Shown here piece after piece: positions 1 through 23,072 of a DNA stretch of 64,000 bases. The notes under the pieces were generated by a model. The model saw nothing but the letters and a program-made list of their open reading frames with translations. It did not search any database and was not told the origin of the DNA. The position numbers and the translations under genes were made by a program. Every line of letters starts with the position of its first letter. Position 1 is the stretch's first letter. Source of the stretch: Escherichia coli (GTDB taxonomy: Bacteria; Pseudomonadota; Gammaproteobacteria; Enterobacterales; Enterobacteriaceae). Location: assembly GCF_022846255.1 (NCBI RefSeq), contig NZ_AP025682.1; one strand, 5' to 3'.

Positions 1-651
1 GTTGTCCTGCAAGGTGCCAAGCCCATCTTCGCCCGGCACGCCTTCGGTCGGCTGACCGCTGGCGGCGGTTTCCAGATAGAGGTTGTCGCCCTCGGCGGAA
101 AGCCCCGCCGGGTTGGCGAAGTTCACCAGCGTCAGTTGCCCTAACTCGGTCACGTCGCTGTCGCCGGGTAAGATCGCCGTCACCGTACCGTCCTCACCAA
201 ACGCGACGTTGGTCGCCCCCGCCGGAACGTCGATTTCCGGCTGCAACGGCAAGCCCTGCGAGTTGGTCAGTACGCCGTCAGCGTTCACCTGCAAGTTGCC
301 GTCGCGGGTATAAGCGATATCGCCGTTGGCCTTTTGCACCTGCAAAAATCCCAGCCCCATAATGGCGACATTCATCGCGTTGTCGGTGGTTTCGACGTTG
401 CCTTCGGTGAAGGTTTTCTGAGTGCCGACAATGCGTACGCCGCTACCGAATTGCAGCCCGGTCGGCATAATGTTGTTCTGATCGAGCATCGCGCCCGGCG
501 CTTCCTGGGTCTGGTAAAACAGATCCTGAAACATCACCCGGTCGCGCTTAAAGCCTGTGGTGTTAACGTTGGCGATGTTGTTGGCAATCGCGCTCATTTC
601 AGCATCCTGCGCTGAGAGGCCGGTTTTGCTGATCCATAGTGCTGCGTTCAT
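1..651 (-). CDS. lfgG: Flagellar distal rod protein FlgG (Flag-2 lateral system), 3' end beyond window
   Basis: Reverse-strand ATG at 649-651 translates MNAALWISKTGLSAQDA..., a typical FlgG/rod N-terminus; open to window edge; not in ORF track because truncated. Confidence 0.8.
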   Translation of the reverse strand, partial: MNAALWISKTGLSAQDAEMSAIANNIANVNTTGFKRDRVMFQDLFYQTQEAPGAMLDQNNIMPTGLQFGSGVRIVGTQKTFTEGNVETTDNAMNVAIMGLGFLQVQKANGDIAYTRDGNLQVNADGVLTNSQGLPLQPEIDVPAGATNVAFGEDGTVTAILPGDSDVTELGQLTLVNFANPAGLSAEGDNLYLETAASGQPTEGVPGEDGLGTLQDN

Positions 652-686
652 GGTGGTAAATTCCGTGTTATTTTTTGGCCGCGGTT

Positions 687-720
687 GCCGGATGCGGCGT
701 GAACGCCTTATCCGACCTAC
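687..720. repeat. REP (repetitive extragenic palindromic) element
   Basis: gccggatgcggcgtgaacgccttatccgacctac matches the E. coli REP consensus; intergenic between lfgG and lfgF. Confidence 0.7.
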
Positions 721-19866: not shown

Positions 19867-20995
19867 CAGCAGCGAAGAAAAAACAGAGAAACCCTCGGCG
19901 CAAAAGCTGCGTAAAGCGCGTGAAGAGGGGCAGCTACCGCGCTCGAAGGATATGGGGCTGGCGGCGAGCCTGTTTGCAGCGTTTGTGGTGATCTCCAGTA
20001 GTTTTCCGTGGTATGCCGATTTTGTGCGCGAGAGTTTTATCAGCGTGCATCAGTACGCACAGGAGATTAATAACCCGCAGGTGATCGGTCAGTTTCTGCG
20101 CCATCACCTGTTAATTCTCGGCAAGTTTATCCTTACGTTGCTGCCGATGCCCGCCGCCGCACTGCTCTCCTCACTGGTGCCCGGCGGCTGGCTGTTTCTG
20201 CCGAAAAAAATCCTCCCGGATTTCAGCAAAATCAGCCCGTTAAAAGGCATTGGGCGACTGTTTTCCAGCGAACATCTGGCGGAAACGGGGAAGATGACAG
20301 TGAAGTCGGTGGTGGTGCTGGTAATGCTGTGGGTAAGCCTGCGCAATAACTTTGCCGCCTTTCTCGGCCTGCAGGCGCTGCCGTTCAAACTGGCGATGAA
20401 TGATGGATTATCGCTCTACGCCAGCGTGATGCGCAACTTTGTCATCCTGTTTATCTTCTTTGCGTTAATCGACGTGCCGCTGGCGAAAGCCCTGTTCACC
20501 AAAGGGCTGAAGATGACCAAGCAGGAGCTGAAAGAAGAGTACAAAAATCAGGAAGGCAAGCCGGAAGTGAAGGCGCGCGTGCGGCGGCTGCAACGGCAAC
20601 TGGCGATGGGGCAAATTCGCAAAGTGGTGCCGAAAGCCAACGTGGTGATCACCAACCCGACCCACTACGCCGTGGCGTTACAGTATGACTCATCACGTGC
20701 CGCCGCACCGTTTGTGGTGGCGAAAGGCACCGATGAAATCGCCCTCTATATTCGCCAGGTCGCCACTGAAAATCAGGTGGAAGTGGTGGAGTTCCCGCGA
20801 CTCGCGCGCTCGGTTTACTACACCACCCAGGTGAACCAGCAAATTCCGTTTCAGCTTTACCGGGCCATCGCCCACGTTCTGACCTACATCCTGCAAATGA
20901 AACACTGGCGCGAGGGCGCACAGCCGCGCCCGGCCCTGAACAGACATATTTCCATTCCCAAAGAGGTACTTAAACTGGATGGCGAAAACAACTAA
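19856..20995 (+). CDS. lfhB: Flagellar export switch protein FlhB
   Basis: 379 aa; N-terminus EKTEKPSAQKLRKAREEGQLPRSKD and the NPTH autocleavage motif (VVITNPTHYAVAL). Confidence 0.9.
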   Translation: MADSSSEEKTEKPSAQKLRKAREEGQLPRSKDMGLAASLFAAFVVISSSFPWYADFVRESFISVHQYAQEINNPQVIGQFLRHHLLILGKFILTLLPMPAAALLSSLVPGGWLFLPKKILPDFSKISPLKGIGRLFSSEHLAETGKMTVKSVVVLVMLWVSLRNNFAAFLGLQALPFKLAMNDGLSLYASVMRNFVILFIFFALIDVPLAKALFTKGLKMTKQELKEEYKNQEGKPEVKARVRRLQRQLAMGQIRKVVPKANVVITNPTHYAVALQYDSSRAAAPFVVAKGTDEIALYIRQVATENQVEVVEFPRLARSVYYTTQVNQQIPFQLYRAIAHVLTYILQMKHWREGAQPRPALNRHISIPKEVLKLDGENN

Positions 20996-23072
20996 ATCGT
21001 TCCTCGCGCCGCTGCGCGGCGGCAATCTCGGCGTGCCGTTGGTGATCCTGTGTATTCTGGCGATGGTTATTCTGCCGCTGCCGCCTGCGCTGCTGGATAT
21101 TCTGTTCACCTTCAACATTGTGCTGGCGGTGATGGTGCTGCTGGTGGCCGTGTCGGCGAAAAGGCCGCTGGAATTCAGCCTGTTCCCGACCATTTTGCTG
21201 ATCACCACCTTAATGCGTCTGACGCTTAACGTTGCTTCTACGCGCGTGGTGCTGCTACACGGGCATCTCGGCGCGGGCGCGGCGGGTAAGGTGATTGAGT
21301 CGTTTGGTCAGGTGGTGATTGGCGGCAACTTTGTCGTCGGTTTCGTGGTATTTATCATCCTGATGATCATCAACTTTATCGTCGTAACCAAGGGGGCCGA
21401 GCGTATTTCCGAGGTTTCTGCCCGCTTTACCCTGGACGCGATGCCCGGCAAACAGATGGCGATTGACGCCGATCTTAACGCCGGGTTGATCAACCAGACG
21501 CAGGCGCAAACCCGGCGTAAAGATGTCGCCAGCGAGGCCGATTTCTACGGCGCAATGGACGGGGCATCAAAATTTGTGCGCGGGGACGCCATCGCCGGGA
21601 TGATGATTCTGGCGATCAACCTGATCGGCGGCGTCTGTATCGGCATCTTCAAATACAACCTGAGCGCCGACGCCGCCTTCCAGCAATATGTGCTGATGAC
21701 TATCGGCGATGGGCTGGTGGCGCAAATCCCTTCCCTGCTGCTCTCCACCGCGGCGGCGATTATCGTCACCCGCGTCAGCGATAACGGTGATATCGCCCAT
21801 GACGTGCGTAATCAGTTGCTGGCAAGCCCGTCGGTTCTCTACACCGCCACTGGAATTATGTTCGTGCTGGCGGTGGTGCCGGGAATGCCGCATTTCCCGT
21901 TCCTGATGTTCAGCGCCCTGCTTGGTTTTACCGGCTGGCGGATGAGCAAGCGCCCGCAAGCGGCGGAGGCGGAAGAGAAAAGCCTCGAAACGCTAACCCG
22001 TACGATGACAGAAACCAGCGAGCAACAGGTCAGTTGGGAAACTATTCCGCTGATCGAACCTATCAGTTTAAGCCTCGGCTACAAACTGGTGGCGCTGGTG
22101 GATAAAGCGCAGGGCAACCCGCTCACCCAGCGTATTCGCGGCGTACGTCAGGTGATTTCCGACGGCAACGGCGTGCTGCTGCCGGAGATCCGTATTCGGG
22201 AAAACTTCCGTCTCAAGCCCAGCCAGTACGCCATTTTCATCAACGGCATTAAGGCTGATGAAGCGGATATTCCGGCGGATAAACTGATGGCCCTGCCCTC
22301 CAGCGAAACCTACGGCGAGATTGACGGCGTACTGGGGAATGACCCGGCATATGGGATGCCGGTCACCTGGATTCAGCCTGCGCAGAAAGCGAAGGCGCTG
22401 AATATGGGGTATCAGGTGATCGACAGCGCCAGCGTGATTGCCACCCATGTGAACAAGATTGTGCGCAGCTATATTCCTGACCTCTTTAACTATGACGATA
22501 TTACGCAGTTGCATAACCGCCTGTCGTCGATGGCACCGCGACTGGCGGAAGATTTGAGCGCGGCACTCAATTACAGCCAATTGCTGAAAGTGTACCGGGC
22601 GCTGCTGACCGAAGGCGTTTCCCTGCGCGATATCGTCACCATCGCCACCGTGCTGGTCGCCAGTAGTGCGGTGACCAAAGATCATATTCTGCTGGCGGCA
22701 GATGTGCGCCTGGCGCTGCGGCGCAGCATTACCCATCCGTTCGTTCGCAAGCAGGAGCTGACGGTGTATACGCTGAATAATGAGCTGGAAAATCTGCTGA
22801 CCAACGTGGTGAATCAGGCGCAACAGGCCGGCAAAGTGATGCTCGACAGCGTGCCAGTGGACCCGAATATGCTCAACCAGTTCCAGAGTACGATGCCGCA
22901 GGTAAAAGAGCAGATGAAAGCGGCGGGGAAAGATCCGGTGCTGCTGGTGCCTCCGCAGCTGCGCCCTTTGCTGGCGCGCTATGCAAGGTTGTTTGCGCCG
23001 GGGCTGCATGTGCTGTCGTATAACGAAGTGCCGGATGAGTTGGAGTTGAAGATAATGGGGGCGTTGAGTTGA
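20979..23072 (+). CDS. lfhA: Flagellar export gate protein FlhA
   Basis: 697 aa; FHxxK-type N-terminal TM region and large cytoplasmic domain. Confidence 0.9.
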   Translation: MAKTTKSFLAPLRGGNLGVPLVILCILAMVILPLPPALLDILFTFNIVLAVMVLLVAVSAKRPLEFSLFPTILLITTLMRLTLNVASTRVVLLHGHLGAGAAGKVIESFGQVVIGGNFVVGFVVFIILMIINFIVVTKGAERISEVSARFTLDAMPGKQMAIDADLNAGLINQTQAQTRRKDVASEADFYGAMDGASKFVRGDAIAGMMILAINLIGGVCIGIFKYNLSADAAFQQYVLMTIGDGLVAQIPSLLLSTAAAIIVTRVSDNGDIAHDVRNQLLASPSVLYTATGIMFVLAVVPGMPHFPFLMFSALLGFTGWRMSKRPQAAEAEEKSLETLTRTMTETSEQQVSWETIPLIEPISLSLGYKLVALVDKAQGNPLTQRIRGVRQVISDGNGVLLPEIRIRENFRLKPSQYAIFINGIKADEADIPADKLMALPSSETYGEIDGVLGNDPAYGMPVTWIQPAQKAKALNMGYQVIDSASVIATHVNKIVRSYIPDLFNYDDITQLHNRLSSMAPRLAEDLSAALNYSQLLKVYRALLTEGVSLRDIVTIATVLVASSAVTKDHILLAADVRLALRRSITHPFVRKQELTVYTLNNELENLLTNVVNQAQQAGKVMLDSVPVDPNMLNQFQSTMPQVKEQMKAAGKDPVLLVPPQLRPLLARYARLFAPGLHVLSYNEVPDELELKIMGALS

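Follow-up and report, generated by a model that had tools for sequence, protein, structure and literature searches.

The lateral (Laf) flagella of Vibrio parahaemolyticus and Aeromonas hydrophila are expressed in a hierarchy in which LafK acts with sigma-54 and is followed by the sigma-28 factor LafS. The LafK of Vibrio is longer than the protein described below, and carries an N-terminal domain. In both genera, Laf is a second, separately regulated flagellar set, and the Flag-2 system of Escherichia coli is stated to resemble it (PMC4637896, PMC2808357); the Flag-2 type locus is that of enteroaggregative strain 042, described in 2005 (Ren et al., as cited in PMC2808357 and PMC4637896). The Vibrio and Aeromonas systems are proven for surface swarming beside a polar flagellum, whereas E. 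coli Flag-2 coexists with the peritrichous flagella encoded by Flag-1, and is not known to yield working flagella. We have analysed a stretch of 64,000 nucleotides of E. coli DNA (contig NZ_AP025682.1 of assembly GCF_022846255.1), referred to here as the window. Positions 1–23072 almost certainly represent the right-hand part, approximately 60%, of a Flag-2 lateral-type secondary flagellar locus, with its genes unbroken.

As a type of locus this is ordinary, and Flag-2 is already a known system. It has been surveyed across 4028 Enterobacterales (De Maayer et al. 2020, PMC6993521); 24 of 100 surveyed E. coli carry it, while the other 76 keep only the remnants lfhA' and lafU' (PMC6993521). It has also been linked to clade C of sequence type 131 (ST131) (PMC6479005). 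A megablast search of 5426 complete E. coli genomes gave a similar frequency, approximately 23% (1262 genomes) holding the region at a coverage of at least 80%. The locus described here agrees with the published descriptions (PMC6993521, PMC4578781, PMC2808357).

The window contains cluster 1, the variable region VR1, and the part of cluster 2 that runs from lfgN to lfgG. The open reading frame (ORF) map shows four co-directional blocks, at 1–4205 (minus strand), 4257–9474 (plus), 9584–16456 (minus) and 16843–23072 (plus). All 14 cluster 1 genes are found, in the canonical order and orientation and at full length by comparison with strains AF16 and 042. The last gene of cluster 2 in the window, lfgG, is cut by the window edge, and lfgH to lfgL lie beyond it. 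Cluster 3 (lafA, lafB–F, lafS and lafTU) is outside the window, and the flagellin, sigma-28 and motor genes are therefore among the roughly 40% of the locus located past the edge.

The locus occupies the usual Flag-2 chromosomal site, adjoining yafL: the lfhA stop is at 23072, and yafL follows at 23173–23919. The right flank continues with dpaA, yafJ, lpcA, fadE, ivy and yafV, and the flanking proteins are 98–100% identical to those of E. coli. At this position, between rayT and dinB, all that is left of Flag-2 in K-12 MG1655 is a pair of pseudogenes, lfhA (b0229) and lafU (b0230), as had been stated in an earlier reading made from the sequence alone. The remnant of lfhA in K-12 matches window positions 21360–23067 with 94% identity, and everything to the left of 21360 has thus been lost from K-12. 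Two small differences are seen in the flank. The window has no rayT (the REP-associated tyrosine transposase, REP being a repetitive extragenic palindromic element) at 23073–23172, where approximately 90 bp containing a short BoxC-like repeat part lfhA from yafL, and between yafL and dpaA (23920–24230) it lacks dinJ-yafQ, which encodes a toxin and its antitoxin. K-12 has both rayT and dinJ-yafQ, while 042 and AF16 have rayT and lack dinJ-yafQ.

The integrity of the genes was examined by aligning 26 proteins of the AF16 annotation (PGAP) to the window with tblastn. Each gene gave one gapless full-length alignment, with 89–100% amino acid identity and no internal stops, the sole partial alignment being that of FlgG, residues 1–217, as the window begins inside this gene. 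The NCBIfam models agree with the names given to FlgG, F, E, D, C, B, A and M, FliJ, I, H, G, F and E, FliN, P, Q and R, FlhB and FlhA, and the sigma-54 activator. FlgE (533 bits), FliI (772 bits) and FlhA (774.5 bits) are above the curated equivalog cut-offs. The structural, export and switch genes are as follows.

1–651, minus strand: lfgG, homologue of the distal rod protein FlgG (codons 1–217 of 261; 99.5% amino acid identity to AF16 FlgG 1–217; TIGR02488, E=2e-81)
730–1467, minus strand: lfgF, proximal rod, 245 residues (AF16 alignment; NF009280 FlgF, 317 bits)
1467–2669, minus strand: lfgE, hook protein, 400 residues (AF16 alignment; NF005286 FlgE)
2693–3406, minus strand: lfgD, hook cap or scaffold, 237 residues (AF16 alignment, NCBIfam)
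3406–3837, minus strand: lfgC, rod protein, 143 residues (AF16 alignment, NCBIfam; without the 2-bp insertion of 042)
3840–4175, minus strand: lfgB, rod protein, 111 residues from the ATG at 4175 (AF16 alignment, NCBIfam; AGGAG 11 nucleotides before the ATG)
4257–4994, plus strand: lfgA, P-ring assembly chaperone, 245 residues (AF16 alignment; TIGR03170)
5075–5353, plus strand: lfgM, anti-sigma-28 factor, 92 residues (AF16 alignment; TIGR03824)
5366–5794, plus strand: lfgN, export chaperone, 142 residues, GTG start (AF16 alignment; an identical protein in the databases matches Pfam FlgN)
9991–10425, minus strand: lfiJ, export apparatus stalk, 144 residues (AF16 alignment, NCBIfam)
10428–11768, minus strand: lfiI, export ATPase, 446 residues (NF005535 FliI; P-loop AGSGVGKS at residue 167)
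11761–12471, minus strand: lfiH, ATPase regulator, 236 residues (AF16 alignment, NCBIfam)
12475–13485, minus strand: lfiG, rotor/switch protein, 336 residues (AF16 alignment, NCBIfam)
13463–15109, minus strand: lfiF, MS-ring, 548 residues (AF16 alignment, NCBIfam)
15114–15455, minus strand: lfiE, MS-ring/rod adaptor, 113 residues (AF16 alignment, NCBIfam)
16843–17694, plus strand: lfiM, switch protein, 283 residues (AF16 alignment; NCBIfam FliM model weak, E=5e-7, C-terminus only)
17687–18058, plus strand: lfiN, switch protein, 123 residues (AF16 alignment, NCBIfam)
18055–18807, plus strand: lfiP, export gate, 250 residues (AF16 alignment, NCBIfam)
18810–19082, plus strand: lfiQ, export gate, 90 residues (AF16 alignment, NCBIfam)
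19084–19866, plus strand: lfiR, export gate, 260 residues (AF16 alignment, NCBIfam)
19856–20995, plus strand: lfhB, export switch, 379 residues (AF16 alignment, NCBIfam; NPTH autocleavage site at residue 267)
20979–23072, plus strand: lfhA, export gate, 697 residues (TIGR01398 FlhA)

The sequence-only reading had described a largely intact locus in which each named gene is an unbroken ORF, and had noted no frameshift among them. The genes are indeed all present at these coordinates and on the expected strands, and alignment against two independent references, AF16 and 042, finds neither a frameshift nor a premature stop; the full-length alignment is gapless to AF16, and the gene order is that of 042. 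Two statements need narrowing. lfgG is open over the codons present but is incomplete, being truncated by the window edge and not by mutation, and "largely intact" is directly shown for only about 60% of the locus, because the window holds roughly that share. The list of genes was also incomplete, in that it omitted the three VR1 genes between lfgN and lfiJ (5922–9988), to which we return below.

The same reading stated that some Flag-2 loci are frameshifted, and 042 is such a case. A three-way alignment shows that two base pairs, GC, are inserted after codon 15 of its lfgC; the window and AF16 both lack them. The other length differences from 042 are both in-frame, 9 nucleotides in lfgD and 6 nucleotides in lafK. 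Apart from these, and from the rayT gene noted above, the two loci are closely alike: they share the yafL-side site and the order lfhAB-lfiRQPNM-lafK-lfiEFGHIJ-VR1-lfgNMA-lfgB..G, VR1 holds the same three genes in each, and nucleotide identity is 94.3–96.5% over the whole region. As in the window, the gene set is intact, lfgC included, in EC958, PCN033 (a porcine extraintestinal pathogenic E. coli), AF16 and JNE120442. These loci also have in common with the window a sigma-54 consensus upstream of lfgB and a LafK of 328 residues with a full sigma-54 interaction domain (PMC4578781).

No insertion sequence (IS), restriction-modification insertion or lesion was found in the 26 genes of the window, which in this respect differs from several other E. 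coli Flag-2 loci, where IS, restriction-modification and REP insertions are present. In JNE120442, lfgA and lfgM are separated by genes for a DNA cytosine methyltransferase and a type II restriction endonuclease (positions 16811–19525 of its locus). In other fetched loci, IS3, ISAs1 and two small ORFs lie in VR1, where they separate the GT2 gene from the TagD-like one. The window lacks all of these. In some draft assemblies fliG, fliP or the GT2 gene is apparently split, possibly through assembly errors. By this comparison, the window copy is a clean one beside decayed or cargo-bearing relatives.

The same haplotype can be followed further to the left in other assemblies. A look-up with LfgA located contig BFRP01000396.1 (GCA_005387665.1), which is 100% identical to window positions 1–14994 and continues leftward with a complete lfgG (261 residues), lfgH, lfgI, lfgJ, lfgK, lfgL and lafW (325 residues), all open. 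Logan contig DRR322657_152 shares a 3891-bp overlap of 100% identity with BFRP01000396.1 and adds lafZ (280 residues) and lafA (304 residues, identical to the LafA of AF16), again both open. Read from these contigs, the haplotype has no broken gene up to and including that for flagellin. Besides GCA_005387665.1, the sequencing runs DRR322657 and DRR102846 carry this haplotype. The leftward walk with LfgL and LafW ends at lafA, where the contigs end, and no long contig with this haplotype came from a look-up with LafK. The sequence-only reading had pointed to the remainder of the locus as a place to look: lfgH–L and lafA are open in the sequence-identical contigs, while lafB to lafU were not recovered there.

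The haplotype is itself mildly unusual. Its Flag-2 DNA is 93.6–97.3% identical to the best complete E. coli genomes, also when compared segment by segment, and it is thus at least 2.7% diverged from every one of the 5426. Put differently, among the approximately 1270 complete genomes that bear Flag-2, none comes closer to it than about 97% identity. Look-ups with the LfgE and LafV proteins likewise gave only haplotypes 93–98% identical. By comparison, the flanking housekeeping genes (23165–30585) are 97.6–98.5% identical to the closest complete genomes, and the type VI secretion system (T6SS) island at 35897–62400 is 99.7% identical to that of strain 2014C-3338.

Substitution rates were calculated by the Nei-Gojobori method for the window against AF16, 042 and JNE120442. 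The Flag-2 core (20–23 genes pooled) has a ratio of nonsynonymous to synonymous substitutions (dN/dS) of 0.048–0.061 with a dS of 0.12–0.20, VR1 a dN/dS of 0.13–0.18 with a dS of 0.12–0.27, and seven flanking housekeeping genes a dN/dS of 0.016–0.026 with a dS of 0.06–0.12. Judged by these values, the core genes have been under strong purifying selection while the alleles diverged, and long-term neutrality is disfavoured because the core dN/dS is around 0.05. The dS against AF16 varies from gene to gene between 0 and 0.35, with lfiQ at 0, lfiI at 0.006, lfgE at 0.28 and lafV at 0.35. This mosaic suggests repeated homologous recombination inside the locus, and fits the recombination at Flag-2 noted in the ST131 literature (PMC4637896).

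The regulation of the locus can in part be predicted from its activator and its promoters.

15470–16456, minus strand: lafK, sigma-54-dependent activator, 328 residues (Pfam Sigma54_activat, E=2.5e-64; HTH_8, E=2e-8)
4212–4227, minus strand: perfect sigma-54 (−24/−12) consensus TGGCACGGCGATTGCT, 36 nucleotides upstream of the lfgB ATG at 4175
5872–5887, plus strand: sigma-54 promoter-like site CGGCACGCTTATTGCA, matching at 10 of 11 positions, 34 nucleotides upstream of lafV

LafK is made up of an AAA+ domain, with a Walker A motif (GETGAGKE) and the sigma-54-contacting GAFTGA at residue 81, and a Fis-type helix-turn-helix. As in AF16 and 042, it has no N-terminal receiver or sensor domain, and it is of similar length in AF16 (328 residues) and 042 (326 residues). 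The site before lfgB (TGGCAC-N5-TTGCT/A) and that before lafV (YGGCAC-N5-TTGCA) are both kept at the same position in 13 of 13 fetched Flag-2 loci. A sigma-54 consensus before lfgB was reported earlier (PMC4578781), and we estimate that about 0.015 perfect matches would be expected in the window by chance. Relaxed searches are much less telling: with up to two mismatches there are 18 sigma-54-like matches across the window, below the 44 expected by chance. Only the two near-perfect, conserved and well-placed sites are therefore used here, and both of them fit control by LafK. It is worth adding that the minus-strand site upstream of lfgB ends at 4212, and that an in-frame ATG upstream of that of lfgB, at 4205, probably sits at or ahead of the transcript start.

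Other promoter searches gave little. Generic scans for sigma-70 promoters and for terminators gave no more matches than shuffled sequence, or fewer, and are uninformative. A sigma-28 search of the window with the E. coli FliA consensus gave no more matches than chance, none of them well placed; a −35-like box (TAAAGTTT) lies upstream of lfgM with a poor −10, and no claim is drawn from it. The AT-rich divergent spacer between lafK and lfiM contains a REP-type repeat (16584–16660, plus strand; Rfam naRNA4, 79 bits), of which there are many copies elsewhere.

VR1 contains three genes, encoding putative flagellin-modifying enzymes.

5922–6851, plus strand: lafV, FliB-like putative flagellin lysine-N-methylase, 309 residues (weak Lys_methyl_FliB match, E=1.6e-9, below cut-off)
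7030–9474, plus strand: VR1 glycosyltransferase, 814 residues (N-terminal GT2 domain, Pfam Glycos_transf_2, E=1e-17; AF16 alignment)
9584–9988, minus strand: TagD-like glycerol-3-phosphate cytidylyltransferase, 134 residues (TIGR01518, E=1e-32, below cut-off)

The identical database protein to LafV carries Pfam FliB_C; lafV is also the most divergent gene, with 89% amino acid identity to AF16. The C-terminus of the glycosyltransferase gives a marginal signal for a TagF-like CDP-glycerol (cytidine diphosphate-glycerol) glycerophosphotransferase (Glyphos_transf, E=0.005). The TagD-like gene is the last in the direction of transcription of the lafK-lfiE..J unit. LafV, GT2 glycosyltransferases and TagD are all named as VR1 cargo by De Maayer et al. 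2020 (PMC6993521), whose description the trio between lfiJ and lfgN fits, and the glycosyltransferase probably belongs to their GT2-1 group. Two other reading frames were rejected. One, an ORF of 838 residues with a GTG start at 6958, runs through a repeat that precedes the ATG at 7030, the conserved start, and the other, of 138 residues (9455–9871, plus strand), is antisense to the TagD-like gene. The spacer between lafV and the GT2 gene is about 140 bp longer than in AF16 and contains GC-rich inverted repeats (6852–7029; CCCTCTCCC...GGGAG[A/G]GG), which we take to be BoxC-like. A REP pair lies at 9480–9565, between the GT2 and TagD-like genes.

In sum, the type III export gate is represented by LfhA, LfhB, LfiP, LfiQ and LfiR, and its ATPase complex by LfiH, LfiI and LfiJ; LfiF, LfiG, LfiM and LfiN are the MS-ring and switch proteins, and LfiE, LfgB–G, LfgA and LfgD those of the rod, the hook and their helpers. 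On the basis of these observations, the following scheme of control is proposed. LafK, having no receiver or sensor domain, would be active whenever it is made, control thus lying in the transcription of lafK. It would act at the sigma-54 promoters of lfgB, for the rod and hook operon, and of lafV, for the modification genes. LfgM would restrain the sigma-28 factor LafS until assembly of the hook-basal body is finished, whereupon release of LafS would allow transcription of the flagellin gene lafA and the motor genes lafTU; this part of the cascade is modelled on the Vibrio and Aeromonas Laf paradigm.

The comparison with Flag-1 (flg, flh and fli) is instructive. The structural and export proteins are homologous, and NCBIfam equivalogs including FlgG, FlgE, FliI and FlhA are matched. 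Flag-1 is under FlhDC and sigma-70, whereas Flag-2 would be under sigma-54 and LafK, and the Flag-2 genes lie at one locus together with the flagellin-modification genes. The N-terminal CheY-binding motif of E. coli FliM (LSQxEIDALL) was not seen in LfiM. Because LfiM is short and has no visible motif of this kind, it is suggested that the Flag-2 switch may not answer to CheY-P as that of Flag-1 does.

What does an open haplotype, so diverged and under purifying selection, do for its host? One reading is that it encodes a working, conditionally expressed lateral flagellum, with a flagellin that would be lysine-methylated by LafV and decorated with a glycerol-phosphate glycan via the GT2/TagF-like and TagD-like enzymes. 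We offer this full reading tentatively, and consider it rather unlikely as it stands; the simpler proposal, that the source strain builds lateral flagella, is doubtful but a serious possibility. A number of points weigh against the account given here. EC958 (ST131), which has an intact locus including lfgC, made no LafA and showed no Flag-2 motility at 28 or 37 °C (PMC4637896). The locus is deleted in most E. coli, and relatives have IS insertions or split genes, which argues that the system is often dispensable. Pairwise dN/dS is a measure of past selection, not of present function or expression. For the lafK and lfiM operons, neither a sigma-54 site of the canonical GG-N10-GC spacing nor a convincing sigma-70 promoter was found, and the top of the cascade is therefore unexplained. 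Finally, the window ends inside lfgG, with lafB–F, lafS, lafT and lafU unseen for this haplotype, and the sequence that leads on to lafA was read in other assemblies, not in the record of the window itself.

The strongest alternative is that the locus is a silent relic, intact on paper, unexpressed under any natural condition, and heading for loss as in about 75% of strains. We give this close to an even chance. It would account for the silence of EC958, for the bare lfhA'/lafU' remnants of K-12 and of the surveyed strains (PMC4637896, PMC6993521), for the IS3 and ISAs1 insertions in VR1, the restriction-modification insertion between lfgA and lfgM and the apparently split genes of the relatives, and for a lafK promoter that is not recognised. 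However, a relic would gather nonsynonymous changes and indels, whereas dN/dS is about 0.05 over 23 core genes with dS reaching 0.2, and all 26 genes of the window and a further nine in the overlap-identical contigs are open. The conservation of the sigma-54 sites in every fetched locus also speaks against a relic, and EC958 was tested in only a small number of laboratory settings.

The intact part could instead be misleading, if the system is inactivated by a lesion beyond the window edge, in lafB–F, lafS, lafT or lafU. This we regard as improbable. About 40% of the locus lies beyond the window, one or more conserved genes are missing from 22% of enterobacterial Flag-2 loci (PMC6993521), and lafU is one of the two end points of the K-12 deletion. 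Set against this, lfgG–L, lafW, lafZ and lafA are open in contigs that are 100% identical across their overlaps, and AF16 and JNE120442 have no pseudogene flags in the part displayed, which extends to fliK or fliA.

Flagellar type III secretion systems can export non-flagellar proteins. A non-motility role for the apparatus, for example in protein export, in adhesion or as an immune-modulating surface structure, would reconcile purifying selection with the lack of demonstrable motility in EC958 (PMC4637896), but is very improbable, as a pure exporter would not need the rod, hook, switch and (in the identical contigs) flagellin genes that are conserved here, and no candidate cargo gene was found in the window.

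The remainder of the window, to the right of yafV, contains a complete-looking T6SS cluster (33493–60351), located between yafV and dnaQ at the aspV tRNA (tRNA-Asp, 60483–60559). By correspondence with 2014C-3338 its genes are tssM, tssL, K, J, hcp, tssC, B, tssH/clpV, tagK, tagJ, tssE, F, G and tssA, and it also contains a Tae4 amidase/immunity pair (36837–38005) and a tlde1-domain gene (42891–43259). It is preceded by two tandem copies of ISEc1 (ISAs1 family; 30558–31771 and approximately 31772–33063) that are 97.6% identical to each other, the first with a full transposase of 378 residues and the second with an ORF of 275 residues only. Relative to 2014C-3338, a hypothetical gene, an Rhs core protein, a DcrB-like gene and all but roughly the first 140 codons of a VgrG-annotated gene are gone beside ISEc1. 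Because most of VgrG, the Rhs core and adjoining genes are missing, it appears that the spike and Rhs effector module of the cluster has been lost. The segment of about 1 kb at 34908–35896 has two small minus-strand ORFs, of 157 and 156 residues, with no counterpart in 2014C-3338; one of them has a faint FlgJ-like (muramidase-type) match (E=6e-4), and together they may encode an additional T6SS effector and its immunity protein. A tRNA-His called by ARAGORN at 58085–58178 (94 nucleotides) is a probable false positive, being inside tssF and without Rfam support.

To return to Flag-2, the locus carries little weight as a discovery. Its value is as a clean strain in which to test whether, and when, E. 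coli deploys Flag-2.

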